Source: Escherichia coli (GTDB lineage Bacteria > Pseudomonadota > Gammaproteobacteria > Enterobacterales > Enterobacteriaceae). Taken from it: a stretch of DNA of 64,000 nt. Of the stretch, positions 2,273 through 64,000 are shown one piece after another (position 1 is the stretch's first letter; every line of letters starts with the position of its first letter). The stretch lies in NCBI RefSeq assembly GCF_050320075.1, contig NZ_CP190022.1; one strand, 5' to 3'. The notes beneath the pieces were generated by a model that was given only the letters and a program-made list of their open reading frames with translations, had not been told where the DNA came from and did no database searches. The position numbers and the translations under genes were made by a program.

Positions 2273-2569
2273 TCAATTTCCTCCCCCCTGGATGAGCGTG
2301 ACGATTACTGACGGACCCTTGACGCTCCAGCAAATTCCCCTGTTCCACATAGGTTTCCAGATATGACCGGTTATTTTCACATTCGGTGTACGAGTTACAG
2401 ATGCAAATAATACAGGTGCATTATCAATATCATCAGGGATGAAATGGTAAGATCGTGGAAAATGTTTATTCATAGCCCGGATGATGGCTGTCTGTGCATC
2501 CTTTGTTCGGGCGCGGTGTGTCCATTCACGCCAGCTATTCATCTCAGAAATAATAACAGTAATCATCAA
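2273..2569 (-). CDS. Hypothetical protein, 98 aa; second gene of a two-gene minus-strand operon
   Basis: ORF with GAGG about 7 nt upstream of the ATG at 2569; starts 26 bp after the stop of the upstream ORF (2596); no family recognised. Confidence 0.5.
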   Translation of the reverse strand: MMITVIISEMNSWREWTHRARTKDAQTAIIRAMNKHFPRSYHFIPDDIDNAPVLFASVTRTPNVKITGHIWKPMWNRGICWSVKGPSVIVTLIQGGGN

Positions 2570-2595
2570 AACCTCGTGCCGTTACCGGGGTCAGT

Positions 2596-3210
2596 CTATC
2601 GATGGTTGATTGCGGCGAGCACATCCTCTGTCTCTTTCATCCTGGCGTTATAACGCTGCGTGTGTTTTTCAAGTTTTGCCTGCGCATGCAGCGCTTCTTC
2701 TTCCGTTACAGTTCCATGAACTTTGCCATCCAGACCATAACGCGGCGTACCTGCGACTGATATACGCTGCAGATATTTGTAACCGCCAGTAATCATTCTT
2801 ACAGCACAATTCCATTCTTTTACAGTTAGTCCACACTCAGGACTGGCCGAAATAAAAGCCATGACATCCTTTGAGATGCCTATTTTAAATGCATGATATC
2901 CCCCCTCTTCAGCCCGTAACTGAGGGAATGTTTTTTTAACACAGTCCAGACTGTGTCGGATAAACTCATGATTCCATCTATTGTTCTTCTTTTTTTTCTT
3001 CTTCTTACGTCCTGTTTTTTTCTGTTGTTCCGGGGAACCGGCCACTGTGGCTGGTATTTCAGGAGGTAATGAGTCGGTTTTAAATTCCATTACTGGCGCT
3101 GGTTTTATATCATCAGGAACAGCCTGTACGGCATCATCCTGGTGAAAAAGAATTCGTCTTTTTTTCTTAATAATAACAACAGGTGACGGTTTCTTTGTGA
3201 CACTGCCCAT
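2596..3210 (-). CDS. Hypothetical protein with an internal poly-lysine tract (about 204 aa from ATG at 3210; track ORF extends to GTG at 3246)
   Basis: ORF 2596-3246 in track; ATG at 3210 preferred because GAGGTG sits 6-7 nt upstream; product has a K-rich run encoded by a poly-purine tract and a C-terminal globular part I cannot place. Confidence 0.5.
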   Translation of the reverse strand: MGSVTKKPSPVVIIKKKRRILFHQDDAVQAVPDDIKPAPVMEFKTDSLPPEIPATVAGSPEQQKKTGRKKKKKKKNNRWNHEFIRHSLDCVKKTFPQLRAEEGGYHAFKIGISKDVMAFISASPECGLTVKEWNCAVRMITGGYKYLQRISVAGTPRYGLDGKVHGTVTEEEALHAQAKLEKHTQRYNARMKETEDVLAAINHR

Positions 3211-3309
3211 ATACACACCTCTGCGTATCGTTAATCTGTAATTCACGACATACAGATAGTATATATCTAAGTCAGCAAAGTCACCAACAGAATAATGATG
3301 ATATTTATT

Positions 3310-4020
3310 TCATGACTGTTCACGAATTATCACTCTGGATTCCTTCCTGGTGACATAAGTACAGTTATCAGGTACATCTTCCATAATAAAAGACATGGCT
3401 CCAATTTTTACATTACTGCCTATTTTTACGTTAAGCCCGATAATACACGTATGGGCACCTACATCGACATTATCACCAATAACGATATAATTCTCTCTGC
3501 TGTCAGATTCCTTTTCGCCAATGGTCGTATTCTGCCGTATAATCACATTCTCACCGATCTTTACATTTCCGTGAATGACGACACCTGAATGGTGGGGCAG
3601 CACGAGGCCTTTACCAATCTGCGCCCCCAAACCAATATCACATCCATACTTTGCCATAAGCGCATTTTTTATCTTGATCGCACATTTTCGTTGTTTTTTA
3701 TTCCCCGATATATACATTTCATTAGCCAGACGCCACCACAGAAGAAAACCTCTCTGCCTCTGCATACCGTTCCTGATAAGCCGGTGAAAAACAATCTTAT
3801 CCCGCATGATAACTTCTGCTTTCCAGTATTCCAGAAGATGACGTTTTTTTCCTGATAATAAAAATGTGCCAATATGGAAATAAGAAATAGGATTTTTTAT
3901 CAGCATACGCAAATTTTCAGATAACAATGAATACAGATGTATTTTATATACACAGATAAAACCGCGCAACAGACATAAATATGACAGTAGCCATGAAAAA
4001 GCAGAGTGTCCTTGACCCAC
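3310..4020 (-). CDS. Hexapeptide-repeat acyl/acetyltransferase (serine O-acetyltransferase-like left-handed beta-helix); start uncertain (internal ATG at 3906 would give about 198 aa)
   Basis: C-terminal half is a classic hexapeptide repeat run (GCDIGLGAQIGKGLVLPHHSGVVIHGNVKIGENVIIRQNTTIG...IGDNVDVGAHTCIIGLNVKIGSNVKIG); track ORF start at 4020 abuts the miniature transposable element. Confidence 0.6.
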   Translation of the reverse strand: MGQGHSAFSWLLSYLCLLRGFICVYKIHLYSLLSENLRMLIKNPISYFHIGTFLLSGKKRHLLEYWKAEVIMRDKIVFHRLIRNGMQRQRGFLLWWRLANEMYISGNKKQRKCAIKIKNALMAKYGCDIGLGAQIGKGLVLPHHSGVVIHGNVKIGENVIIRQNTTIGEKESDSRENYIVIGDNVDVGAHTCIIGLNVKIGSNVKIGAMSFIMEDVPDNCTYVTRKESRVIIREQS

Positions 4021-8400: not shown

Positions 8401-8673
<273 letters not shown>

Positions 8674-14653: not shown

Positions 14654-14714
14654 CCGCCGGCGCTTCCCCGTACGGAAGTCCGGCATCTCATTCACTAACT
14701 ATGGAGATTATGCT

Positions 14715-29532: not shown

Positions 29533-31089
29533 TTGTACAGGAAAATGACTGGCGTGTCTTGTATTAAAGAAAAATCAAAATATACTTTTGAGAGAGCAAA
29601 ACAGTTTTATTTTATGTTGTGGTGTAAAGAGTCACTGATTTATCTGTTGTTTTCTGTGCTTGTTACATGGTGTTGCGGATATACAGTGAAAAACACCCTG
29701 GGGAATGTGCTTATATTGTTCCTGATGTTGTTGTTGGGGCGGCAGAATGTTATTTCAGCAACGTGTGTCTGTATCTTTCTTTTGTTAAGTGCATTCTATG
29801 CTCCGGTTGGGATGATTTACGGAAAAATAAACAACAGTTTTATTGCGTCTGTAATGCAGACAAATCTAAATGAGGCAGGTGAATTTATCACAGGCATACC
29901 TGTTCTTTATTTTATTGTTTCACTGATTATTGCTGCTTTTACATTCTGGTTCTGGCGTAAGCGTGATAAAAGCCACCAGGGATTTATCTTTCTGTTGTTC
30001 TTTATCGTATTGTCAGTAAATGCATGGCCAAAACGTATGGTTACGAATGTAATGACAGGGATAGCTGAAACCAGAGAAGAAATGATGCGATATGAATCGC
30101 TGAAACACAATCAGAAAGATTCATGGGATATTGTGAATGTGGAGAAGAAATATAAAACCATAATTATCGTAATTGGTGAAAGTGTCAGACGGGATTATCT
30201 TTCTGTTTATGGGTATCCTTTGCCGACAACACCATGGTTGAATTCTGCTCCGGGTATATTTATTAATGGGTATTTCTCCGCAGCTCCGAATACGATAGGT
30301 TCACTCAGCAGAACACTGACTCTTGATTACACTGAAACAGGTAATCCGGGTAATAATATTGTTACGCTTGCCAGAAAAGCCGGATATGAGACGTGGTGGA
30401 TATCAAATCAGGGCTCTTTAGGGCGACATGATACGCTGATTTCTGTCATCGCCGCCAATGCGGATAAGAAATATTTTCTTAAGGAAGGGAGCTCTTCTTC
30501 CCGTCGCATTGATGATGAAGATATGCTTCAGTATGTCAGGGAAGCTGTTAATTCGTCTTCTCCAAAAGTGATTTTCATTCATATGCTGGGGTCCCATCCT
30601 AATCCCTGTGACAGACTTTTTAATGATGCACAGCCGTTCAGGGAATTATTCGGAAATAAAGTATCCTGTTATTTATCAACATTGCTTAAGCTGGATCGGT
30701 TTCTTCAGGCAATTTATAACATGACGACAGAGCATGGCGATGATTTTGCCATGCTGTATTTTTCTGATCATGGGCAATCCGTCACTTCAGACAGCACCCC
30801 TGTGCATCATGCGCCAGGTTTGCGTTCGGGATACGATGTACCTCTCATGATGATGGCCAGTGATATTACTGAGCACCACCTCAATCATGTGCATATCAGT
30901 GCACGTCGTTTTCCCGAGATTTTTCAATGGATCACAGGGATACAAACCAAAAATCTGCCGTTAAGTTTTTCTTTGTTACAGAATGATTTCGCTGAAAGTG
31001 TTTCTGTATTCAATGGTGAACGTGACGTTCCGGTAATGTCTTTGCCAGAAGAGCCGATACTGACCGGAAATGCTGAATCAGAAAAATAA
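29533..31089 (+). CDS. Phosphoethanolamine-transferase-like membrane protein (N-terminal multi-TM domain + sulfatase/alkaline-phosphatase-type catalytic domain, EptA/MCR-like architecture)
   Basis: Five predicted N-terminal TM helices then sulfatase-type motifs (IIVIGESVRRDY, HMLGSHPNP, YFSDHGQS); alternative start at ATG 29545. Confidence 0.65.
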   Translation: MYRKMTGVSCIKEKSKYTFERAKQFYFMLWCKESLIYLLFSVLVTWCCGYTVKNTLGNVLILFLMLLLGRQNVISATCVCIFLLLSAFYAPVGMIYGKINNSFIASVMQTNLNEAGEFITGIPVLYFIVSLIIAAFTFWFWRKRDKSHQGFIFLLFFIVLSVNAWPKRMVTNVMTGIAETREEMMRYESLKHNQKDSWDIVNVEKKYKTIIIVIGESVRRDYLSVYGYPLPTTPWLNSAPGIFINGYFSAAPNTIGSLSRTLTLDYTETGNPGNNIVTLARKAGYETWWISNQGSLGRHDTLISVIAANADKKYFLKEGSSSSRRIDDEDMLQYVREAVNSSSPKVIFIHMLGSHPNPCDRLFNDAQPFRELFGNKVSCYLSTLLKLDRFLQAIYNMTTEHGDDFAMLYFSDHGQSVTSDSTPVHHAPGLRSGYDVPLMMMASDITEHHLNHVHISARRFPEIFQWITGIQTKNLPLSFSLLQNDFAESVSVFNGERDVPVMSLPEEPILTGNAESEK

Positions 31090-32222: not shown

Positions 32223-32873
32223 TTAAAATACTTCTGCAACAGGAACACCGGCAACTTTTTCCCACTCTTTAACCCGATACCGAATCATCTGCGGGAAACG
32301 TTCCTTGTACTCATATCCACGTGCAGCCATGGTGTGCATGGTGTTGGCCAGCGTCCTTGATGAGATGCCGGAGATTTCCAGTGGGATCATCGGCAGACTC
32401 ACATATGTAGTGTGGATTTCCAGCTTGCCGTCTTCAGCAACCGTGCGGGTAAAGTTGTGAATATCCAGACCAATCACATCCATCACATTGTTTGGGTAAA
32501 TGCGCACATACAGCATGGTGCCGTTTTTAATGTCGATCCCGAAATAACAACTCTTCGAGAATGACAGTTGCTCGTAATCGCTGGTCGGCGCAAAGAGACA
32601 GCTTTCTTTTATCTGCTTAACAACCTGCTGGATTTTCTTTTTCTTCGCTCTGGTTCTCAGATATAGCCAGAGTGGGGGAATAAAAAGAAGAAAATAACAT
32701 CCATATGCCAGAATAAAAAGGCTTGTTGAATTCGTTAGTTTATCATCTAATAAATATGATGTATAAGCTGTTGCGTATAAAGCTAAGCACGGAATGCCTA
32801 ATAAAAAATAAGCGTTGCGGGCCAAGTGGTAATATGCCCACCAGGAAGGATATCTGCTTTTTGTTTTGTTCAT
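32223..32873 (-). CDS. excA: Inner-membrane protein in the entry-exclusion position (ExcA-like)
   Basis: 216-aa protein with two N-terminal TM helices immediately downstream of traY; followed by a hairpin terminator (about 32165-32200). Confidence 0.5.
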   Translation of the reverse strand: MNKTKSRYPSWWAYYHLARNAYFLLGIPCLALYATAYTSYLLDDKLTNSTSLFILAYGCYFLLFIPPLWLYLRTRAKKKKIQQVVKQIKESCLFAPTSDYEQLSFSKSCYFGIDIKNGTMLYVRIYPNNVMDVIGLDIHNFTRTVAEDGKLEIHTTYVSLPMIPLEISGISSRTLANTMHTMAARGYEYKERFPQMIRYRVKEWEKVAGVPVAEVF

Positions 32874-32961: not shown

Positions 32962-35127
32962 TTATTGTTTTATTCCGTCTTTATCATCTCTATTAATATT
33001 TTTCAGTTTTTCTTCACGAACGCCAGGTGTTCTGCGCATATTGGTATTACCTCCGGCAATAATATCTTTGACTGAAGAAACCATATTCCCCAGCATATTA
33101 ACACCGTCACGCCCGCCCAGAAAATTAATTACATGGTCAGGCAGATAAGCCTGAAGTGCAAAAATGGCCGCAACCAGCGTGGTACAGGCTCGGGCATAAA
33201 TCATCAAAAATCCCGCCATGCTGAACACGCCCGTCACAGAATTTATCTGGACATTCATCAGCGCAGCAGCAAACAGCGCATTCAGGATTGTGCCGCCGGC
33301 CACGATGGCGACCGATGCAAAAAAGAATCCGAACACCATCAGCAGCGGTCTGATCATGCTGTCTATCAGGTAGATGTAACCGTAAGCGGCCCGGCTTCCC
33401 CGGTCCTGACTTGTTCCCAGATGGGTGGCGGCCCACAGGGGGCCAGCAGCACATCCAATCAGTACGCTGAGTATCCAGTTGCCGATGCCGGTCATCCAGA
33501 AGATAAACGGAATAAACGGCAGGTAAATGGATAACGAAAAACCGGCACAGAACAGCAAAAACAGCAGGAAGTAGAGCGGTGGTGCGGATGCTTCCAGAAA
33601 AGCCTTTGCGGCGTCAGATAAGCCGCTGACGGCATTGACCAGTCGGCCAAAAACGGAGTTGCTGCCGGCAGTTGAAAGCACCCTGACGGTGGTATAACCC
33701 GCCCAGATGGTTTCGGTTGTGACCATGGTGTAATCACCAATGTTTTTCATTTTTATTAGCGGATTTAGTTGGTCCGAGGTGGTTCCAGTTCCTGAATGTA
33801 TGGTTGCAATTTGATTGGTAAATAACGTCAGGTCATTCCCTAGGAGTTTTAACAGGGCTGATTGAGGATTCTGTGTATTAGATGCCTGGTATTCACTGGC
33901 TGAGGTGGCTGTTCCCAGTGCAGGTGTATATGGTGAGTTTTGCAACTGTGCCTGGTAAGCCCCCTTGACTTCCTTCAGGAACTCCGTATCCCCGGCTTCG
34001 CCCAGTGACGAGACGCCACTCACAGTAGGAGCGCGGTTGGCCAGGTCTTCCAGTCGCTGGTTGGCGGTGGCAAAGGTCTGGTACCAGGCGCCCAGGGCAA
34101 CCCAGCCGTAGGTGGTCAGGTAGGATTTCAGCTGCTCCCTGCGCTCAGTTTCTGCGTTATCTGCCGGCAACGCCTTCTGCACCGTTTCTTCATACCGGTT
34201 GGCAGCCTTCTGAATACGGCTTTCAATATCCGGCAGGTTGCCGTTACCCGTGTCGCGTCGGGTCCGGTACGCTGACACAAATTCCTGCGCCGCGCTGTCC
34301 AGGTCACGGAGCATGGTATCCATGGCGGAGCGCTGTGCCGTCAGAACCCCCTGATATTCCGTTTCAATGAAGGGATTGAAAAAATGGGCCAGCGCGGACT
34401 GCTTGTTACTGCCGTTTCCTTTCACGGAGAGACTCACACTCCCGCAGGTGGCGCTGCCATTTGAGACGGTGACGGTATATCTGCCATTCTCTGTCCGTGA
34501 GGATTCGCTCATGGGCGGCGTTGATGAACGTGCGGTACGGTTAAAGTCATCGAGGCCCGTATTCATGGCGTGTTTGCACAGTTCCATCTCCAGTATTCCC
34601 CGTGCTGCCGTGCGGGTGGAGACATGTACTGGCTGTACGGTCATTGAATAGCCTTCAGCGATGTTTTCTGCCGCTGTCTGAACCATGATATTGGCGGAAC
34701 CGATGCCCATGATGGATGCGCCCCACAGCATGACCAGTTGTGCCAGACTCCAGCCGGAAGCGGTGGGCACAATCATCATAAAACCGCTCACAATACTGAG
34801 CATTCCGACGACGTCCCGTCCGTTGTTAAAGACATTGCCCTGGTGTCCCGTGCGGACAGCATGACGGATACCAATAAACAGAAACCAGACTATCCCCATC
34901 GTGGCGATAATTGCGTTAAACACCATGAACAGGTTGCCAATGATGGTGTTGCTGCTGGCTGTCAGGGGATTTGTGACCACATCACCAAAAATGGTGACCA
35001 GTGCCTGGCGCGACAGGTCATCCGGATTGGTGGCGGCACTCACAATGTCCTGATAGGTGACGAAAGCCTGTGCAGGTACGGCAGCCAGCGCCAGACCTGC
35101 ACTCAGTGCTCTGGGTATGATTTTCAC
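32962..35127 (-). CDS. traY: Polytopic inner-membrane transfer protein TraY (DotA-like)
   Basis: 721-aa protein with signal-like N-terminus, central soluble region and many C-terminal TM helices; position before excA as in IncI-type transfer regions. Confidence 0.7.
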   Translation of the reverse strand: MKIIPRALSAGLALAAVPAQAFVTYQDIVSAATNPDDLSRQALVTIFGDVVTNPLTASSNTIIGNLFMVFNAIIATMGIVWFLFIGIRHAVRTGHQGNVFNNGRDVVGMLSIVSGFMMIVPTASGWSLAQLVMLWGASIMGIGSANIMVQTAAENIAEGYSMTVQPVHVSTRTAARGILEMELCKHAMNTGLDDFNRTARSSTPPMSESSRTENGRYTVTVSNGSATCGSVSLSVKGNGSNKQSALAHFFNPFIETEYQGVLTAQRSAMDTMLRDLDSAAQEFVSAYRTRRDTGNGNLPDIESRIQKAANRYEETVQKALPADNAETERREQLKSYLTTYGWVALGAWYQTFATANQRLEDLANRAPTVSGVSSLGEAGDTEFLKEVKGAYQAQLQNSPYTPALGTATSASEYQASNTQNPQSALLKLLGNDLTLFTNQIATIHSGTGTTSDQLNPLIKMKNIGDYTMVTTETIWAGYTTVRVLSTAGSNSVFGRLVNAVSGLSDAAKAFLEASAPPLYFLLFLLFCAGFSLSIYLPFIPFIFWMTGIGNWILSVLIGCAAGPLWAATHLGTSQDRGSRAAYGYIYLIDSMIRPLLMVFGFFFASVAIVAGGTILNALFAAALMNVQINSVTGVFSMAGFLMIYARACTTLVAAIFALQAYLPDHVINFLGGRDGVNMLGNMVSSVKDIIAGGNTNMRRTPGVREEKLKNINRDDKDGIKQ

Positions 35128-54880: not shown

Positions 54881-56083
54881 TCAGAATGTGAACTGCAGTT
54901 GTGCAACGGCACCGTAGTTGTTGTCTGTGCCTGCTATACCCGCCACATCAATATGGACGACATCAAATGGTGAGATACCCAGCCCGGCGGTGAACGCACT
55001 GTCATCATTGCTGGCCAGATTCTGGCGGTAGCCTGCACGTAACTGTGCCCATTTCCAGGCATTAAATTCAGCACCAATGGCAGCAAACTGACGTTTACTG
55101 TCTGATGTGAAGCCACTGGCCGGGGTCAGGTCAACATCCAGTGCTGTAGTGAACATGTCGTTGTGCCAGGAGACACCGGCAGTCACCTGCGGGCGGATCC
55201 TGAAAGTTTCAGTGACACCATGTACCTCTTTGGTCTCAATGCTGCGTGGGATCAGGTTCTGTGCGACCAGACCCAGCGTCCAGTTGTCATCCAGGTCCAT
55301 GCTGGCACCGATATCAGCGTTAATACCGTTTTGGGTGTTGTGGTAACGGTTACCTTTGAATGCGCTGCTGTCATAGTTTTTGATCAGCGTATTGTAGTTA
55401 AACAGGTCAACACGCTGGAATTTTGGTGTGAAGCCCAGTGACCATTTTTGTCCGGCCGTTTCCAGTTCAGTGGCCAGCGCAACGCCCACATCGGTGATCA
55501 GTGCGGCACGGGCAAAAGCCTGTGAGGTCAGTCTGTTTTTATCCACATCCTGGCTGCCACTGTCTGCAATGCTTTCCAGATAGTTCAGGTCGGCATCGCT
55601 GACTTTACCGTCGACGCTGACAGTCCCGAACGTTTTCAGCATCAGTGCAGCAGCGAGGGTATCACCGGGAAGGGCCGCCACAGCAGATGTTCCCACCTGT
55701 GCGTCAGCATGCGTGTGACGGAAGTCCTGAAGTCGCGTCTTCAGACGTGCAGCAGTCTGCGACACGTTGCTCTGACTGTCGATGGCACGATCAAAGGCTT
55801 TCCAGTCATCGCTGATTTTGTCGGCGTTGTCGGCGATATTACCCGGATCGGACAGCTGCGCACCCACGGACGGAAGCAGAAGACTGAAGTCATCTTTTGC
55901 ACCGGATTTTGTCAGCAGTGCCGGGTTTGCCAGTGGGGCCACACCATAGTGAGAGGAGGCTACCCCGGTTCCCCCCATTGCATCATTGCGGGCTTCAAAA
56001 TATGAAGTTGCGGCTGTTGAATTAAAGGAAAATAAAACAGCAGATGCGATGAGAGTTCGGGTAATGTGCATATTCATCATCAT
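54881..56083 (-). CDS. Secreted outer-membrane beta-barrel-like protein of the transfer region (start at ATG 56083)
   Basis: AGGAAA RBS; signal peptide MMMNMHITRTLIASAVLFSFNSTAA; Gly/Ala/Thr-rich with C-terminal aromatic residue (QLQFTF) typical of OMPs; hairpin terminator just downstream (about 54853-54875). Confidence 0.55.
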   Translation of the reverse strand: MMMNMHITRTLIASAVLFSFNSTAATSYFEARNDAMGGTGVASSHYGVAPLANPALLTKSGAKDDFSLLLPSVGAQLSDPGNIADNADKISDDWKAFDRAIDSQSNVSQTAARLKTRLQDFRHTHADAQVGTSAVAALPGDTLAAALMLKTFGTVSVDGKVSDADLNYLESIADSGSQDVDKNRLTSQAFARAALITDVGVALATELETAGQKWSLGFTPKFQRVDLFNYNTLIKNYDSSAFKGNRYHNTQNGINADIGASMDLDDNWTLGLVAQNLIPRSIETKEVHGVTETFRIRPQVTAGVSWHNDMFTTALDVDLTPASGFTSDSKRQFAAIGAEFNAWKWAQLRAGYRQNLASNDDSAFTAGLGISPFDVVHIDVAGIAGTDNNYGAVAQLQFTF

Positions 56084-56172
56084 TTCAGTTTCCTGGTTTG
56101 AGGTGTTTTGGGTACAGCAACGGTATGACACGACTGTGCCATTAAAAATTTACTGGTTTTTTCTCTGCGTTA

Positions 56173-56994
56173 TTACCAGGGTAATAACGGTATACTGAAT
56201 AACTCAGCAGGTAATATTTTTCCTGTCATCAGATATTCTGCCTGTGCCGGACGAAGCGTTACGGTCCGGACGGATGTCTTTGCATATAAATTGCGGGCAG
56301 TGTGAAACCAGTTTTCTTTTTCCTTATTCATTCTTACAGGTGATAAAGAAAGTACAGGATAAATGATGGCTTTATTAATTTCTTTTTTCTTGCGGAACAG
56401 TACACCGCAATATTCCTGTGAATGAACACCGGCAAAAGGAAAACTGTGCCAGATAATAATATCCACATTATCGCTGGCTGAAATAAGCTGGCAGAACGCA
56501 TCCTGTGTTGCTGGCCACTCACCGGCACGGCTTAAAGGATAACGTACCCTGCCGTTCAGCCATTCCGGGTTGAGATAAAACCAGTCAGCCAGAGCAGTCA
56601 GAATCTCTCCTGTCAGATAATCTGCGAGTTTGTCCGGGTCACGGAAAACGGCAGGACGGATATTCCAGGGAGCCAGTAACGTTGTCATCGTTGTTACGCA
56701 GACATCATGTGCCTGCATGATGTGTTCTGTCCGGCAGATAAGACGGTGAACGATGTTTTCAGCCGGGAGAAACATTTCAGTTAATGCATCTTCGACCAGG
56801 ATACGCGTCAGGTCGGATACAGAAAGGGAGAGTTGCTCGCTCATTATTCCGAGTGCTTCTCTGACGCCCTGCGGATAACGGATCTGCAGGGGAGTGGACT
56901 GCAACTGGCGGTTATTGAGCAGAGCTTCGCTAATCCGGGCCCTGTCAATGGAGAGCATCATGCGGGCAGCAATGCCTGTGCTGTTTGGTTTCAT
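56173..56994 (-). CDS. Transfer-region protein of unknown function (273 aa)
   Basis: ORF in operon context between the rci side and the OMP gene. Confidence 0.45.
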   Translation of the reverse strand: MKPNSTGIAARMMLSIDRARISEALLNNRQLQSTPLQIRYPQGVREALGIMSEQLSLSVSDLTRILVEDALTEMFLPAENIVHRLICRTEHIMQAHDVCVTTMTTLLAPWNIRPAVFRDPDKLADYLTGEILTALADWFYLNPEWLNGRVRYPLSRAGEWPATQDAFCQLISASDNVDIIIWHSFPFAGVHSQEYCGVLFRKKKEINKAIIYPVLSLSPVRMNKEKENWFHTARNLYAKTSVRTVTLRPAQAEYLMTGKILPAELFSIPLLPW

Positions 56995-57244
56995 TTCACC
57001 TCCGTGCGGTTCATATGTTAAGTCTAAAGAGCGTGTTTACTGAACGGAAACGAGTTATTTCGATCGTTATGATCGAGTGTGTTTCAAGAGTGCTTTTAAC
57101 TCTGTTTTAAGCGTGAATGAAAAGGATTCGGACAGGACGTGATTTAGCATGCCGCTGGTCTGGCATTATGCTGCAGAGCAGACGGAGTCAGGAGATTGAA
57201 GGGCGGTACAGTCTGCGAAGACTGGACACGGGGTGTGTCGGGAA

Positions 57245-57790
57245 TTAACGCACGTGAGGCGTAATGAGAACGACGCGTTTTTCGCTAGCTCCACCTCCGG
57301 CGAATCCATTCATGACAAGGGACTGTTCCGGTCTGAGAGAAATGCTCTGCTCAACAGTCTGGTTTCGTTTCTGGTCTGTGGTCGAGAGTCGCAGAGTGAT
57401 ATTGCCCCCCTTAATATCCGGCGATATCTGCATTCTGACATCGGGGGATACATCAGCAGTAAAGGCATCCGGACCTACGGATGTTACCTGTGATTCAACA
57501 CAGGACGTATTCTGCATCATCCCGTGGAGCGTTTCAGGTGTCAGCGTCAGGCTGTCATTAAAAAAAGCACTGTGTGAAATGACCCCCTGAGCATCGGCAA
57601 ACAGGTCCGGATGGCGCTCATTAAGAAGGCTTCCGTATTTTTCCGCCAGGCAGATTGGGTTGCTGGCCGTTGTGTCTGTTCGCACGGTATCGACCGTGAA
57701 TGTCACCTGCGGGTGATGTTCCCTGTGGCCTGTGCAGCCGGACAGCAGTGCGGCGGCTATCGTCATCCAGAGTAGTGGTTGTTTTTTCAT
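57245..57790 (-). CDS. Lipoprotein of unknown function (181 aa)
   Basis: Lipobox MKKQPLLWMTIAAALLSGC. Confidence 0.5.
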   Translation of the reverse strand: MKKQPLLWMTIAAALLSGCTGHREHHPQVTFTVDTVRTDTTASNPICLAEKYGSLLNERHPDLFADAQGVISHSAFFNDSLTLTPETLHGMMQNTSCVESQVTSVGPDAFTADVSPDVRMQISPDIKGGNITLRLSTTDQKRNQTVEQSISLRPEQSLVMNGFAGGGASEKRVVLITPHVR

Positions 57791-57908
57791 GCTGTTAATT
57801 TCCTCTCAGGGTAAAAAGAAAGACTCGCACCGTCATGTCAATGGTAAGCGTACAGCCTGAACCGTCTGGTCAGAATCTGACGAATTAGACATAGGGGCAA
57901 ATCCATGT

Positions 57909-58190
57909 TTATTTTGCATCCATCATCTCGCCCATCAGCAGTCGGATACGCTGCCAGGTGTCATGATCCAGTACAGGTGATGGTATTACCATGCAAGCAC
58001 TGTGCCCGGTAGCGGCGGCAGAAAGCATGGCTTTAACTTCGTAGGCATTGCCAGTAAGGATAACCCTCCCCGTCAACCCCAACACTGAGTTGGCGTGAAT
58101 TGGTGGTGTGAATTCGATTTCGTTAATGTCCCGGCCAGTTAGGATGCGATTATTATCCGCATTGGCAGCACGGGAGGATACGTGTTTCAT
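57909..58190 (-). CDS. Hypothetical small protein (93 aa from ATG 58190)
   Basis: GAGG RBS 8 nt upstream of ATG 58190; no family recognised. Confidence 0.4.
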   Translation of the reverse strand: MKHVSSRAANADNNRILTGRDINEIEFTPPIHANSVLGLTGRVILTGNAYEVKAMLSAAATGHSACMVIPSPVLDHDTWQRIRLLMGEMMDAK

Positions 58191-58230
58191 AAAGAACCTC
58201 ATTGCGTTAATTTTGAACAAAATTGTTTGC

Positions 58231-59400
58231 TCAGCAAGGGGATGTGAGAATAGTGGTTGATTTTGTCATAAGCTGGTCGTTTGTTAACGGACAAATCATT
58301 ACCCGTTCATCAATGTTTGTAGGAAGTTCGCCAGGAGTTGGGACACGCTCTCCTCGCTGGGCGGCTTGTGCCAGTGTTCGTAGCAGCAACACGCTGGCAT
58401 GAAATATGGCCTGTTCTTTTGTGGCTGCGCTTGTTTCCAGGTCGAAATCACTCAGAGTCACAACGACTTGCCCGTTTCTGTTCTCGACCGTTGCCGGGTA
58501 GGGAACAAAATAGGGAGCGATTTTGCTGGTTTGCTTGCGTCGGGCATCGAGTTTACTGACAAGTTGATAAGCCCGAAGGTGTGTGTATCGTTTCAACATG
58601 TTCAGGGAGCGATGGCCTGAAATAGCGGCAACTTCAATGACGTTCAATGTACCAAGTTCGAAAAATCGGCTGATAGCCTCATGACGGAGGTCATGAAAAT
58701 GCAAGTTTTCTATATTCAGTTCCTGAAGTGCTGTTCGCCAGGCACTTTTGAATCCCGAAGATGTATAAGAAAAAATATTACCGTTAAGCTGTATTGGCAG
58801 CATTTGCAGGTAACTACGGGCTTTCCTGGATAGCGGAACATCGCGTGGAGCACCATTTTTGGTTGTTGGAAGATGAGCTACCCCATGTTGCAGATCGACG
58901 TGTTCCCAACGCAATGACAAGATTTCACCTTGTCGCATTGCTGTTTCCAGCGCCAGATGAAAAATGACGTAAAGAGCCTGATTTTTTTCTTTGAAATACC
59001 GCGAAAGTCGGCGTTCTTCTCCTGAAGTCAGGCGACGATCGCGCCCGCTACTGATTTTGGGTTTTCTGACCAGTTCGACAGGATTCATACGGCATGTTCC
59101 CCATTCCACACGGGCGATATTGAATAATGATGATAAAAGGGCAAGTTCAAGACGGACGGTATTTCCGGTGATTTGACGCCCTGTTCGTGGGTTAATTTGA
59201 GCTAAACGCTGATCCCGGTAACCGGCGATATCAATGGTAGTGATTTCATCCATATAGCGCTCGGCCATAGGGTGACGTTTAATCACATTGACGCGATAAA
59301 ACTCCTGCAGATGACCTTTTTTATGGACGGAAACGGTTTTCAGGTATTTGTCCAGCGCCCGGTTGAGAGTCATTTTGCGAATTTTGATTTTTCGAAACAT
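58231..59400 (-). CDS. rci: Shufflon-specific tyrosine recombinase Rci
   Basis: From ATG 59400: [34 protein letters not shown]... with integrase-family catalytic residues (R...HDLRH...Y); directly beside the shufflon repeats; track ORF has a 59-codon upstream extension. Confidence 0.9.
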
Positions 59401-59462
59401 ATCTGCCTTCCACGATAAAAACGGGGAAGGTAGGAATAGTGAAACGGAAATGCAATATCGCC

Positions 59463-61836
59463 GTGCCAATCCGGTATCTGGACAACGACAAAAATGAACT
59501 TCACTACCAGTACATACAATATCGGGAAAAATACCGTAATCTGAGCATTGGCGTACATGCGTACTGCTCGTGGACATACCTTAATGGCTCGCCTTTTGGT
59601 GGTTTTCAGCAGATATACGCCGACCAAAACAAGGTTTGGTATGTGAATAATTATGCGTGGGGAAATTATGAGTCCGGTGGCACAATTACAGTGACATGCC
59701 TCAACCTTCCTGGTGCCGGAATCTAACCAAAAGGGCAACAGTAAGCATCGACGTGCTCTTCATCAACACCATCTCCGATGCCGTACATTCTTGTACCTGT
59801 CATGACGTACCCGGCAGGGCACTGAATCGGCTTGTAATAAATAGAACCTCCACTTCTGCCACCGATAAAATGTGCGGAGGTCGCTTCATACCATTTACAG
59901 GCAGAATAGTTCACTTTATTGCCTCCAAGCCACAAACCGGATTGGCACTGGCCTCCGTGCCAATCCGGTTCGTGGACAAGTAGCCAAAAGAAAGAACGTT
60001 TCACGGTATACGGAATAAGTGGATGTGGGCATACACCGTCCTATGCGGTATGTCCTGATGGCAGTGATTTAGTTTCTGGTGGGTATCAGTTAACGGCTTG
60101 GTCCCAGGATAACCGGAACCCGTTTAACTCACCAGACTCAAGTTACCCAGACTGGAATAATAAACGTTGGGTTGTCGGAGGTACCGGAACTATCACGAGC
60201 TGTTTCCGCTCAGTAGCTGTATGTGCCAGATAATGTGCGACAGAGCTTTCAACGGAAACAGTGAACAGTGATGTAATAGCTGCTATACAATGTGCCATTG
60301 TACGCACTCCAATTCATCTCGCCGTTTACATCTGGATTATCTGTCGGCCAGACTCTTGTCATTGCAGTTTCCTTTCCGTCTATACGATATGTATTAACGC
60401 AAAGTTTGAATTTTCCCAGAGCCTTCGTTGTGGTTGGGTACAAGGTGAAGGATGTTACTGATGTCCACGGCGCAGCAGAACCGATTGATTTCCACGAACC
60501 GGATTGGCACTGGCCTCCGTGCCAATCCGGTTCGTGGAAAAATGCAGGAAAAGGCGATATTGAAATCGTCAAAGTAACAGCATCAAAACTCCGCTGGCCT
60601 GGTGCTACTGCCACCTGCCCAATGGGTAAGAAGGTGATCGGGGGTGGTGCAGAATGCAGCTCTGGAATTGGCTTTATCTGGCTTGTCCGTTCAATACCTG
60701 TAAACAATAATGCCTGGTATGGCTATTGCGATACGACAGAACACATCATTGGAAAAATAACTGTACATGCCATTTGCCAATGACAAAGTGATTTACTGGC
60801 AAACCACAATGTAACTACATTTCCCCGTCAGGTCGTTCCTGTTTGTACCGCCGTGAAAATTGTATTCATCGTAGTAACCACACTTCACAATCCTGTTCGA
60901 ATCATATGTCGCAACAGAACCTGCGAAGTAATTTGGCTTCCAGCCATGCGGGTTTTCAGCATTGCTGACGCTCCAGGTACACTGGCTGGCAGAAAAACCA
61001 GACGGCAAAGGTAGTCGTTCTCCATTTGCGATTTTTCCTGTCAGAACAGTGCTACCTGATACCCTAATCCACGAACCGGATTGGCACTGGCCTCCGTGCC
61101 AATCCGGTGTGTGGGTTGGCTTTGAATCGGACCCTGTGGGAAGCCCTATCCCGTGGCCATCTGCCACTCCTCCACAAGGCTATCTGTTGATGAACGGCCA
61201 GTCGTTTTCCTGTTCCCGGTATCCTCAGCTTGCCCGTGCTTATCCTGGCTGTAAATTGCCCGATCTGCGCGGTGTTTTTATCCGTGGCTGGGATAACGGG
61301 AAGGGACTTGCATGGTGATCCACAGACAACTCCTGGTTATCAGGCCGATCAATCAGGCGTCTATCACGAACGTGGCGGATGGCTGAAAGGGCATCATAGT
61401 TATGCCATACTGGGCACAGGGGAGTACCACATGTGAAATGCGTCCCAAAAATATTGCATTCAACTACATTGTTAAAGCCAGCTAGGGACTCACATCTGAT
61501 AGGCATACACAGATAACACCGTTACCACAGGCGTAAATTTTGTGTTGGTCTGGAGATGATTTGATATGACGCTCCCACTGGCACGGCAAATGAAATAAAT
61601 GCTGTCTTTCCGTAGGAGGGGTTATTGCTGGCATTCATACCAATGAAAGCGCCGTTCACATAGCCCTGAAGATTTGATGTGTTGGCGCAATCACCGCCAC
61701 CGGCACCATTTCCACCGGAAGCGTACACAAACAAAGCCTGCCGTTATTTCTCCCGTTAAATGTTCCCCGGTGAGAACCCAGATTGCTGTAACTTCCGTCA
61801 GGTGCACCAATCGTTCGCCACACACCGGATTGGCAC
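59463..61836. other. Shufflon: four invertible segments bounded by 19-bp sfx repeats, carrying alternative pilV C-terminal exons on both strands
   Basis: Repeat GTGCCAATCCGGT(a/t)(t/c)(c/g)TGG at 59463-59481, 59957-59975, 60519-60537, 61096-61114 and inverse copies at 59931-59948, 60493-60510, 61070-61087, 61821-61836; inner pairs separated by TGGCCTCC; eight short ORFs start at repeats and converge within segments. Confidence 0.85.
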
Positions 61837-62819
61837 GAAAGTATTGCCCCTTTACTGTCGCGGCCTACAAGTCCGTCCGGTGAGCAGGAAGTACCTGCGG
61901 TGGCTGTTTTTTCCAGCTGTAAATACTCACCTGTGGAAAGACGACCGTCAGACCGGACAGTTCCACCACTGACTTTTCCTCCTTTGAGCTCTCCTTCGGT
62001 TGTGATCCCTTTGTTGTTAACAGCACGTATCCATTCGCTGTCCGTCATGGTGAAACCGCCTCCGTGCGTCGTGTTCATCCACCCCTTGTTGTTTCTGGTG
62101 ATAAACCAGCCGTCTTCGCTGGTTATATCGCCTTTCACCGTGGCTTTCTGACCATTGAGGTTACCGGCGTTATTGATGTCATTTCCGCCCATGTTGATAG
62201 CTGTGTGCATCTGGTTCAGCTCTGGTCTCTCCGGGACCTGGAAACGATACAACCTGTCGCTTTCCTGCAGATCATCACCCGTCATGACGACGGCAATGTG
62301 ACCTGCCGAACAGGTGAGTCCGTAATCCCCCGGTTTGTCTGTCCAGGCGCCGAATGCGCCGGTTGCTGTTCCGTTTTTACCAATATAACCACCCAGCCCG
62401 GGAAGCTGTCCTGCCACACTGCGCAGACCATCTTCTTTGATATTCTGCCCCCCTGTTGAGCAGGTCAGGGCTTCAAGACGTCCTGTAGTCTGGTTACGGC
62501 GGATACCCGTGATATAACTCTGCCCAAACGGAGAATGATTAAATCCCTGTTTCAGGTATCCCTTGCGAATCAAATCATCGGCTGTAAAGTTTGCCGGAAG
62601 GCTGCCGTTGTGCAGAGTGGCATTGTTATCGGCAATGTAATTTCTGGCTGCGGTATTGTAGGCATCTGCATGAGAAGCAGCACTCTGGTAAAGCTGTTCA
62701 TTCAGCCAGTTTTCTATTTCGGAATAAATCAGCGGCGTGGCGATACCAATCACTATCAGTCCCGCCAGTATTTCAAGCAGAATAAAACCTTTGTCGTCAT
62801 CGTGTCTGAACTTTTTCAC
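61656..62819 (-). CDS. pilV: Thin-pilus minor pilin/adhesin PilV (constant N-terminal region fused to the currently adjacent shufflon exon)
   Basis: Type IV prepilin-like N-terminus (MKKFRHDDDKGFILLEILAGLIVIGIA); ORF crosses the outermost sfx repeat (61821-61836) into the shufflon. Confidence 0.85.
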   Translation of the reverse strand: MKKFRHDDDKGFILLEILAGLIVIGIATPLIYSEIENWLNEQLYQSAASHADAYNTAARNYIADNNATLHNGSLPANFTADDLIRKGYLKQGFNHSPFGQSYITGIRRNQTTGRLEALTCSTGGQNIKEDGLRSVAGQLPGLGGYIGKNGTATGAFGAWTDKPGDYGLTCSAGHIAVVMTGDDLQESDRLYRFQVPERPELNQMHTAINMGGNDINNAGNLNGQKATVKGDITSEDGWFITRNNKGWMNTTHGGGFTMTDSEWIRAVNNKGITTEGELKGGKVSGGTVRSDGRLSTGEYLQLEKTATAGTSCSPDGLVGRDSKGAILSCQSGVWRTIGAPDGSYSNLGSHRGTFNGRNNGRLCLCTLPVEMVPVAVIAPTHQIFRAM

Positions 62820-63523
62820 GTGAATATCTCCGAAGTGCGGAAAACGGAATCAGGGAGGAGGGTTAGTGCATACAGTGATGCGCAGAGAAACGGGGCGAAC
62901 GGCAGTGCCTGCTGATGTCTGTGACGGCAGAAGAGGAGGATAAACAGAAATGCCCCGGAAGCTGCGGCGGTGATTAGCAGCGGCGTGTGTTGTGGCTGTG
63001 TCCACATTGCAATTCCTGCTATCAGGAATACATCACCAAGGCCGAGTGCTTCTGTTCCTTTTGCCGTTATGAAAAACTGCCGTAGCAGGTATGTCATGCC
63101 GAACCAGAGTGATGCGTTGAGGAGGCTGTATGTGAGCTCCTCCAGGCTGTACCTGAACGCTGCCCCCAGAACAATCAGTGAAAGCGTGAATATCCGGGGA
63201 AGCCGACAGACGGCGATGTCCGTCAGCGTCATTACAGTTAATAATCCCGTCAGAATGGAAAGGAATAACAGCCCCGTGGCTTCAACACCATATGCGCCGT
63301 TGAGGCTGACACTCACTATGGCCAGAAGGCAACACACGTACACCACCGGCCTGGGCGGCCGGGTGTCGTGTACTGCTGACAGGTAGAGAGCGGCGGTGAT
63401 GTATGCAAGATAAAGAATAACCGCCAGGATGATGATTATTATTGTCATGCTCAGTAATGCGCTCACCGTCACCTCGTATTTATTAATATTGTCTGAAATA
63501 CCGGTTGTGGATTTTTCGGGCAT
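62816..63523 (-). CDS. pilU: Prepilin peptidase PilU (A24 family)
   Basis: Polytopic membrane protein with prepilin-peptidase-like organisation; immediately upstream of pilV. Confidence 0.7.
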   Translation of the reverse strand: MPEKSTTGISDNINKYEVTVSALLSMTIIIIILAVILYLAYITAALYLSAVHDTRPPRPVVYVCCLLAIVSVSLNGAYGVEATGLLFLSILTGLLTVMTLTDIAVCRLPRIFTLSLIVLGAAFRYSLEELTYSLLNASLWFGMTYLLRQFFITAKGTEALGLGDVFLIAGIAMWTQPQHTPLLITAAASGAFLFILLFCRHRHQQALPFAPFLCASLYALTLLPDSVFRTSEIFT

Positions 63524-63959
63524 ATATCATGCGCCGGGCTGTGTTATTTTTGCTGAAACCGGCGTTATAGCTGCCCAGGCATTCCCAGTTAACGCCGCAG
63601 CGTTGAAAATGGCGGGCCAGTATCCAGGCACCGGTATGAATATTCAGGCAGGGCTTTTTAAGCAGTTCATCCTTGTTTTTAATGACGCCCAGTTTTTTCA
63701 GTTCAGGAATATGCACTGAATTAATCTGCATTATTCCGTAATCCGTACTGATGATTTTTCCGGATTTGTTTTTATTGTGATTTATCGCAGTGGCGACCAG
63801 GCCGCTTTCCTGCTGTGCAATGGTTTTCAGAAGCTCAGGGGCAATCAGGTAACGTTTTCCGGCCTGAATAAAACAGGAATCGAGATGATTATTATTCATC
63901 ACAGATGCGATTGATGTGTTACTGAATAAAAGCAGGACAGAGAGATATAACCATTTCAT
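63483..63959 (-). CDS. pilT: Lytic transglycosylase PilT (Slt-domain)
   Basis: Signal peptide plus transglycosylase motif region (ESGLVATAINHNKN...DYGIMQINS...AGAWIL...YNAG). Confidence 0.75.
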   Translation of the reverse strand: MKWLYLSVLLLFSNTSIASVMNNNHLDSCFIQAGKRYLIAPELLKTIAQQESGLVATAINHNKNKSGKIISTDYGIMQINSVHIPELKKLGVIKNKDELLKKPCLNIHTGAWILARHFQRCGVNWECLGSYNAGFSKNNTARRMIYARKIHNRYFRQY

Positions 63960-64000
63960 TATGATAATCCCGGCAGTGACAGCATCCTCTGGTATTTAAG

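Follow-up and report, generated by a model that had tools for sequence, protein, structure and literature searches.

We identified positions 59463-61836 of a 64,000-nucleotide stretch of Escherichia coli DNA (hereafter the window), with high confidence, as an Rci/sfx multiple-inversion shufflon located in the thin-pilus operon of a conjugative I-complex plasmid of the IncK2/Z type. This assignment follows from the combination of a pilV gene carrying a Shufflon_N domain, an Rci recombinase, accompanying pil genes and matches to IncK2/Z plasmids. Systems of this kind have been described before, and so has this very form. The PilV that the deposited sequence expresses, together with two silent exons, has probably been mis-called through assembly of the region from a mixed population.

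The shufflon locus and its plasmid context

The genes around the invertible region all lie on the minus strand:

58231..59400, minus strand, rci, encoding a tyrosine recombinase of 389 aa (Pfam Phage_integrase, E=1.1e-24)
61837..62819, minus strand, pilV constant region, about 328 codons (Pfam Shufflon_N, E=1e-108), with a prepilin-type N-terminus
62816..63523, minus strand, pilU-like A24 prepilin peptidase upstream of pilV (Pfam Peptidase_A24, E=7.7e-12, and the annotation of relatives)

The rci gene is uninterrupted, and its product is 76% identical to the Rci of plasmid R64 over 373 of 389 residues. Exactly this protein is recorded on 82 contigs, and relatives have a site-specific integrase annotated at the same position. 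The identity of the PilV constant region to R64 PilV is just 43.5%. A lytic transglycosylase (SLT) gene is also found upstream of pilV, and in relatives the locus runs on into pilin and pil genes. The tra/trb/nik backbone of the window matches IncK2/Z, MOBP, MPF_I conjugative plasmids; the nearest plasmid in PLSDB, NZ_MG825371, is ∼98% identical over this backbone and 100% identical around the shufflon.

The sfx repeats

Searching the 64-kb window with the pattern GTGCCAATCCGGTNNNTGG yielded eight exact 19-bp sfx repeats, four per strand and all within 59463-61836, whose core plus right arm reads GTGCCAATCCGGTnnnTGG. Even with two mismatches allowed, no further sfx copies were found in the 64-kb window. 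The repeats and the junctions between them are as follows:

59463-59481, plus strand, sfx with triplet atc, at the rci-proximal end of the shufflon, leading into exon 1a
59930-59948, minus strand, sfx with triplet ttg, leading into exon 1b
59957-59975, plus strand, sfx with triplet tcg, leading into exon 2a
60492-60510, minus strand, sfx with triplet tcg, leading into exon 2b
60519-60537, plus strand, sfx with triplet tcg, leading into exon 3a
61069-61087, minus strand, sfx with triplet tcg, leading into exon 3b
61096-61114, plus strand, sfx with triplet gtg, leading into exon 4a
61818-61836, minus strand, sfx with triplet gtg, where the pilV constant region meets exon 4b, read as CQSGVW within pilV
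59949-59956, 60511-60518 and 61088-61095, 8-bp junctions TGGCCTCC between back-to-back sfx sites

Among the six internal sites, neighbours stand back to back in three pairs, and the spacer is always exactly TGGCCTCC, in agreement with the paired inverted repeats and 8-bp spacer proposed in a preliminary description of this DNA. Each site consists of an invariant 7-bp core, GTGCCAA, and a 12-bp right arm, TCCGGTnnnTGG. At none of the eight sites does the 12-bp stretch upstream of the core match an arm consensus, that is, the left arm is non-conserved: the two terminal sites are unlike each other there, and the six internal ones have the 8-bp junction followed by 4 bp of the neighbouring core. 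Past each 19-mer, within the exon, the next 12 bp differ at all eight sites. The variable triplet occurs in four types (tcg, atc, gtg and ttg). The preliminary description had listed only atc, tcg and gtg, overlooking ttg at 59930-59948, and had spoken of third-position variants; the differences in fact concern the whole triplet, at positions 7-9 of the right arm.

Could such repeats have arisen by chance, as generic inverted repeats, or belong to a serine-invertase switch of the Hin/Gin/Cin type unrelated to pilV? We attach practically no weight to this possibility. It draws on the tail-collar domain encoded by exon 4a, a kind of module that Gin and Cin switch. It is contradicted by the eight matches, where 0.12 are expected by chance and none of 100 dinucleotide-preserving shuffles reached eight, by the tyrosine family of the adjacent recombinase, and by the repeats themselves, which lie in the pilV reading frame and match the published sfx consensus exactly. 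We regard both forms of the explanation as refuted by the repeat statistics, the recombinase family and the pilV frame.

Invertible segments and alternative PilV C-termini

Each sfx site is read as G-TGC-CAA-TCC-GGT-nnn-TGG, encoding CQSGxW in frame with pilV, and an exon follows behind all eight sites. Since an open exon lies inward of every repeat, each segment holds two convergent exons. The coordinates and anatomy that had been described at the outset, namely paired repeats bounding four segments with two convergent exons each, are thus correct. For R64 exon names the basis is BLASTP against the R64 record and the PGAP annotation of relatives, and we use the neutral labels 1a to 4b; counted from pilV, the exon order is 4b-4a-3b-3a-2b-2a-1b-1a. 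The segments and exons are as follows:

59482-59929, segment 1 (448 bp), with exon 1a on the plus and exon 1b on the minus strand
exon 1a, plus strand, 26 codons (87 in relatives), stop at 59542-59544, with a 1-nt deletion between 59534 and 59535
exon 1b, minus strand, beginning CQSGLWLGGNKVNY..., 74 codons, stop at 59723-59725
59976-60491, segment 2 (516 bp), 100% identical to NZ_MG825371
exon 2a, plus strand, beginning TSSQKKERF..., 91 codons, stop at 60231-60233, with no close counterpart in R64
exon 2b, minus strand, beginning KSIGSAAPW..., 86 codons, stop at 60249-60251, 59% identical to an R64 exon
60538-61068, segment 3 (531 bp), 100% identical to NZ_MG825371
exon 3a, plus strand, beginning KNAGKGDIE..., 87 codons, stop at 60781-60783
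exon 3b, minus strand, beginning IRVSGSTVL..., 97 codons, stop at 60793-60795
61115-61817, segment 4 (703 bp), with 8 private indels and 5 substitutions
exon 4a, plus strand, 73 codons (129 in relatives), stop at 61316-61318, with a phage tail-collar domain
exon 4b, minus strand, A-type, presently joined to pilV, 59 codons (116 in relatives), stop at 61656-61658

Segment 4 thus combines an A-type exon with a tail-collar exon and is bounded by two identical gtg sites.

In their intact forms the exons of segment 1 are 83% identical to R64 exons, and those of segment 3 are 56% and 80% identical. None of the eight exons matched an NCBIfam model, and the only Pfam match among them was Collar (PF07484, E=2.2e-13 for the intact form) in exon 4a.

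Eight alternative C-termini had been proposed, and all eight positions do encode one; however, only five match the full-length exons of relatives (74-97 codons), and private indels cut exons 1a, 4a and 4b short by comparison. The preliminary description had also noted that the exon joined to pilV is short. Its length is indeed 59 codons from CQSG to the stop, yet this reflects truncation rather than design: its first lesion is a 4-nt deletion between 61736 and 61737, which shifts the frame. As deposited, the pilV open reading frame (61656-62819, minus strand) encodes 387 aa, against 444 aa with an intact exon 4b. The exact 387-aa PilV (WP_427880809.1 / XTM19495.1) occurs on a single contig of 77,078 bp among 15 billion proteins.

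Arrangements in related plasmids

We decoded exon order and orientation in 16 related plasmid records and the window, 17 records with near-identical segments. No two of the 17 arrangements are alike, and for every one of the eight exons there is at least one record in which it is joined to pilV. From these two observations we conclude that the system shuffles in this plasmid lineage. The asymmetric 8-bp junction was found in both orientations among the 17 records, as group inversions predict, and one or two segments have been lost in some lineages. According to the preliminary description, a single fixed arrangement would speak against a switch; at the level of the lineage the opposite is seen. 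Together with the recombinase, the sites, the Shufflon_N domain, the in-frame exons and the pil/tra context, the arrangements of the relatives bear out its identification of an Rci/sfx shufflon.

These data also bear on whether the locus might be a frozen relic, in which sites and exons remain and Rci no longer inverts them. The single assembled sequence, taken by itself, shows one arrangement only, as a relic would. We nevertheless consider this very unlikely: the uninterrupted rci is full length relative to R64 Rci and its product is recorded in identical form on the 82 contigs, the sfx sites are perfect in eight of eight cases, and close relatives are arranged differently, including NZ_MG825371, whose rci-side DNA is identical to that of the window.

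Within each plasmid lineage the triplet travels with its exon, whatever the position of that exon. Exon 1a is linked to atc in 17 of 17 records, exons 2a and 2b to tcg in 9 of 9, exons 3a and 3b to tcg in 15 of 15, and exons 4a and 4b to gtg in 17 of 17; the triplet of exon 1b is ttg in one lineage and gtg in another, regardless of position. At the same time, the observed arrangements can only have arisen if sites with unlike triplets recombined, as where a gtg exon has been replaced by a tcg exon at pilV. Linkage that persists despite such recombination fits a crossover within GTGCCAA, upstream of the triplet. The core has been placed at GTGCCAA, upstream of the triplet (PMC4176322; PMC9045228 for TP114), and the triplet therefore belongs to the right arm, at positions 7-9. 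We also considered a variable triplet inside the crossover core and rejected it: this reading made the strict exon-triplet linkage puzzling, and both PMC4176322 and PMC9045228 put the triplet at right-arm positions 7-9. The comparison of the 17 records also provides a clean natural confirmation that the variable triplet lies downstream of the crossover.

Private indels in segments 4 and 1

The window carries nine private indels, eight in segment 4 and a 1-nt deletion in segment 1. Segments 2 and 3 are clean, and the single deletion is all that affects segment 1. The window matches NZ_MG825371 base for base over 56700-59475 and 59956-61114 (100% identity), and the two differ by 2 SNPs in 61818-64000; the 13 differences of segment 4 fall within ∼620 bp, against a background of 2 SNPs over ∼6.5 kb.

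The segment 4 sequence of the window is its own. None of 415 plasmid and 337 E. coli RefSeq records contained a segment with at least 99% identity to it, the best reaching 97.3%. The indels are missing from more than 300 plasmids and from 15 metagenome contigs, and the segment 1 deletion is in none of the plasmids compared. The allele with the 4-nt deletion had no exact match in metagenome contigs, where the consensus allele had 17. It was also absent from species-representative genomes, an uninformative result, since that collection has one genome per species. In 14 of the 17 plasmid records and in 15 short-read metagenome contigs, segment 4 varies by substitutions only and never by indels; aligned with the consensus, all 15 metagenome contigs that span segment 4 in full show no gap. 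Two other complete-plasmid records are damaged: CP082750 has six other private indels in segment 4, and the segment 4 of CP104518 is a chimera of two orientations. Their defects lie at other positions than those of the window.

We consider it likely that the nine indels are consensus or assembly errors caused by mixed segment orientations in the sequenced culture. This judgement rests on the comparisons above and on two published observations, that segment A is the most often inverting segment of R64 (PMC11852207) and that shufflons are a known assembly problem (PMC5430464; also Brouwer 2015, as cited in PMC5350095).

An observation that runs against an artefact is that the remaining three segments should then be heterogeneous too, yet they are nearly clean. 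In a mirror-image test, in which the segment 4 variants were set against the reverse complement at the same coordinates, no pattern tied them to reads of inverted orientation.

The alternative is that the indels are real and that the shufflon of this plasmid has partly decayed, with five exons still functional and, in the present arrangement, a truncated PilV without an adhesin domain. Such a PilV would amount to an OFF state for liquid mating until another exon flips in. The sequence as deposited does encode the truncations, the indels lie outside homopolymers and so are unlike the homopolymer type typical of some sequencing platforms, and the damage to segment 4 exons in two other records could mean recurrent loss of function. 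We nevertheless judge real decay to be clearly the less probable explanation. Thirteen differences in so short a segment are hard to produce by ordinary mutation when the surrounding DNA is almost unchanged, the allele has been seen just once, segment 4 is free of indels in the metagenome contigs and most plasmid records, and the defects of the other two records lie elsewhere, one of them being an obvious orientation chimera.

More doubtful still, and in our estimation improbable, is that the frameshifts are genuine and that inactivating indels have repeatedly hit segment 4 in independent plasmids, namely the window, CP082750 and perhaps CP104518. If it were so, the indels would point to a mutational hotspot tied to frequent Rci action or to selection against both adhesins in some hosts, and the shufflon would gain an OFF state as well.

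Another origin that we considered for the segment 4 differences was gene conversion from prophage tail-fibre genes. It was rejected because indels make up most of the differences and exon 4b, which is not a collar exon, is affected as well.

If the indels are consensus errors, as we favour, pilV is mis-called, and recipient range inferred from the deposited gene is therefore unreliable. The practical value of the analysis thus lies in a warning about the annotation of invertible regions. Points worth recording besides are the existence of four triplet types, the location of the triplet in the right arm, and the presence of five rather than eight intact exons.

Proposed mechanism

In the mechanism that we propose, Rci would bind specifically to the 12-bp right arm, and crossover would occur within GTGCCAA. 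The right arm is thought to be the part specifically bound by Rci (PMC11852207). The non-conserved left arm makes each site asymmetric, and this asymmetry is thought in the literature to limit Rci to inversions, so that the four segments would invert singly or in groups. The only exon translated would be whichever one abuts the pilV constant region, which reads from 62819 down to 61837. The resulting PilV variants are predicted to share a common N-terminal pilin body and to differ in a C-terminal adhesin domain of 74-129 residues.

As in R64 and TP114, this domain may select the recipient surface structures, lipopolysaccharide (LPS), that the donor binds in liquid mating. PilV variants set recipient specificity in liquid mating in both of these plasmids (PMC5430464, PMC9045228), and it is by homology with them that we infer a switch of recipient specificity here. 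That the repeat variants tune the frequency of inversion, as the preliminary description had suggested, is plausible: sfx variants have a strong effect on shuffling rates (PMC11852207), and repeat type has been suggested to skew isoform abundance (PMC5430464).

Comparison with known systems

Work on shufflons of I-complex plasmids goes back to 1986, and the prototype is that of R64 (Komano et al. 1987). With R64 (IncI1, NC_005014) the window shares Rci, the sfx core and right arm, back-to-back sites 8 bp apart, and the order of pilV constant region, shufflon and rci on one strand. The preliminary description had proposed comparing the exon repertoire with known shufflons. This comparison places the same segments in IncK2/Z plasmids and finds R64 homologues, with 56-83% identity, for six of the eight exons. 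R64 lacks the tail-collar exon 4a and exon 2a, and its 73-aa exon is missing here. Further differences are that R64 has seven sfx sites and seven exons, one of its segments having a single exon and direct-oriented ends, and that exons are paired into segments differently. The R64 triplets are acc, acg, act and cgg with the junction TGGCCTAC, whereas those of the window are tcg, atc, gtg and ttg with the junction TGGCCTCC.

DNA inversion likewise exchanges the C-terminal, receptor-binding end of a surface protein in the Gin system of phage Mu, the Cin system of P1 and the Min system of p15B. These systems use a recombinase of the serine family and need an enhancer and Fis. The recombinase adjacent to the present repeats is of the tyrosine family, so the locus is not in the serine-invertase group.

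TP114 and R721 belong to another plasmid group, IncI2, and are likened to the window here by their published description (PMC9045228, PMC5430464). There are eight sfx sites in TP114, along with four invertible segments that yield eight different C-termini of PilV (Allard et al. 2022, PMC9045228). Its variable triplets are GTG, ATC and TCG at right-arm positions 7-9, and its adhesin variants have been shown to set conjugation specificity (PMC9045228).

The closest match is to the IncK2 shufflons, whose eight repeats fall into four types that Seiffert et al. (2017, PMC5350095) called e (tcg), f (atc), g (gtg) and h (ttg). The window has the same eight repeats, of the same four types, as the IncK2 plasmids pDV10, pDV45 and pTMSA1088 (PMC5350095). 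Repeats are paired there as g-g, e-e, e-e and h-f, and the window reads g-g-e-e-e-e-h-f from the pilV side. Among the IncK2/Z relatives, represented by more than 300 PLSDB records, the same four segments occur at 97-100% DNA identity and in the same rci/pilV/pil context. Nothing in the architecture is therefore new, since both the eight-repeat IncK2 form and the four-segment TP114 form have been published. What sets the window apart from its IncK2/Z relatives is its own exon order and orientation, a backbone that shares just ∼98% identity with the nearest PLSDB plasmid, and its nine private indels.

Triplets and exons of the shufflon

The sfx sites of the window were compared with those of the plasmid loci L001-L018. 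The variable triplet in the right arm of the 19-bp sfx repeat stays with its own exon across all arrangements. That of exon 1b is independent of the exon's position in these loci: it is ttg in plasmids that carry either Rci WP_029391926 or the Rci of the window, and gtg in most plasmids of the Rci WP_021532708 sub-lineage (L010-L016). Read in the pilV frame across the site, the triplet encodes residue x of CQSGxW, which is V, S, I or L.

Defects and losses of segments

Private defects cluster in one invertible segment, segment 4, in three independent complete-plasmid records, namely the window, CP082750 and CP104518.

Defects in segment 4 (coordinates of each record or locus)
61115-61817, window: eight indels
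2451-3192, L018 (CP082750): six indels, other than those of the window
3175-3861, L008 (CP104518): chimera, one half forward and the other half inverted

Segment 4 is free of indels in 14 further plasmid records and in 15 contigs from metagenomes.

Entire segments have been lost from some relatives (L009-L016, for example NZ_CP033633 and NZ_CP043035). All of these lack segment 2; L011 and L012 lack segment 3 as well. Deletions thus arise on an evolutionary time scale, even though Rci has been described as an inversion-only recombinase.

Reading frames and backbone

The mechanically called ORF that holds rci (58231-59577, minus strand, 448 aa) crosses the first sfx site upstream and runs on within segment 1. 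Annotators of the relatives chose a start at 59400, which yields 389 aa. The CDSs annotated in the relatives as "shufflon protein A/B/C/D'" and "phage tail protein" are silent exons read through sfx sites.

The stretch from the tra genes to rci holds three further ORFs.

ORFs between the tra genes and rci
54881-56131, minus strand: 416 aa, probably an outer-membrane beta-barrel, weakly matching the PorV/PorQ family
57245-57790, minus strand: 181 aa, conserved hypothetical with a lipoprotein-like N-terminus, no family match
57909-58190, minus strand: 93 aa, conserved hypothetical, no family match

The plasmid backbone also carries a phosphoethanolamine-transferase-like gene (29554-31089, plus strand, 511 aa), which is likewise present in NZ_MG825371, the plasmid nearest to the window. 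The top NCBIfam match of its product was CptA, with E=4e-31 and a score of 108 bits where the cutoff is 404. Its scores fell far under every cutoff of the MCR family models, and it is therefore not a recognised colistin-resistance gene. Clustered indels relative to the nearest plasmid were observed in short backbone patches at 32680-32760, 33835-33911, 8480-8590 and 14686-14712, surrounded by sequence that is ∼98% identical to that plasmid. These patches look diverged or recombined, rather than erroneous.

Junctions and shufflon ends

On the pilV strand, the constant region of pilV ends in GCAATACTTTC (61837-61847). Directly outside the rci-proximal terminal sfx site, positions 59452-59462 read GCAATATCGCC, similar to this end; the likeness lengthens the terminal inverted repeat (repeat I4) to 37 nt at 78%. 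The stretch at 59452-59462 is possibly a remnant left by duplication of the pilV end.

The 8-bp junction occurs three times in the window (59949-59956, 60511-60518 and 61088-61095) as TGGCCTCC, in one common orientation, whereas in R64 (L004), the IncI1 prototype, it is TGGCCTAC (33733-33740 and 34234-34241). Among the relatives and in R64, junction copies are found in both orientations, and this mixture is a record of past group inversions.
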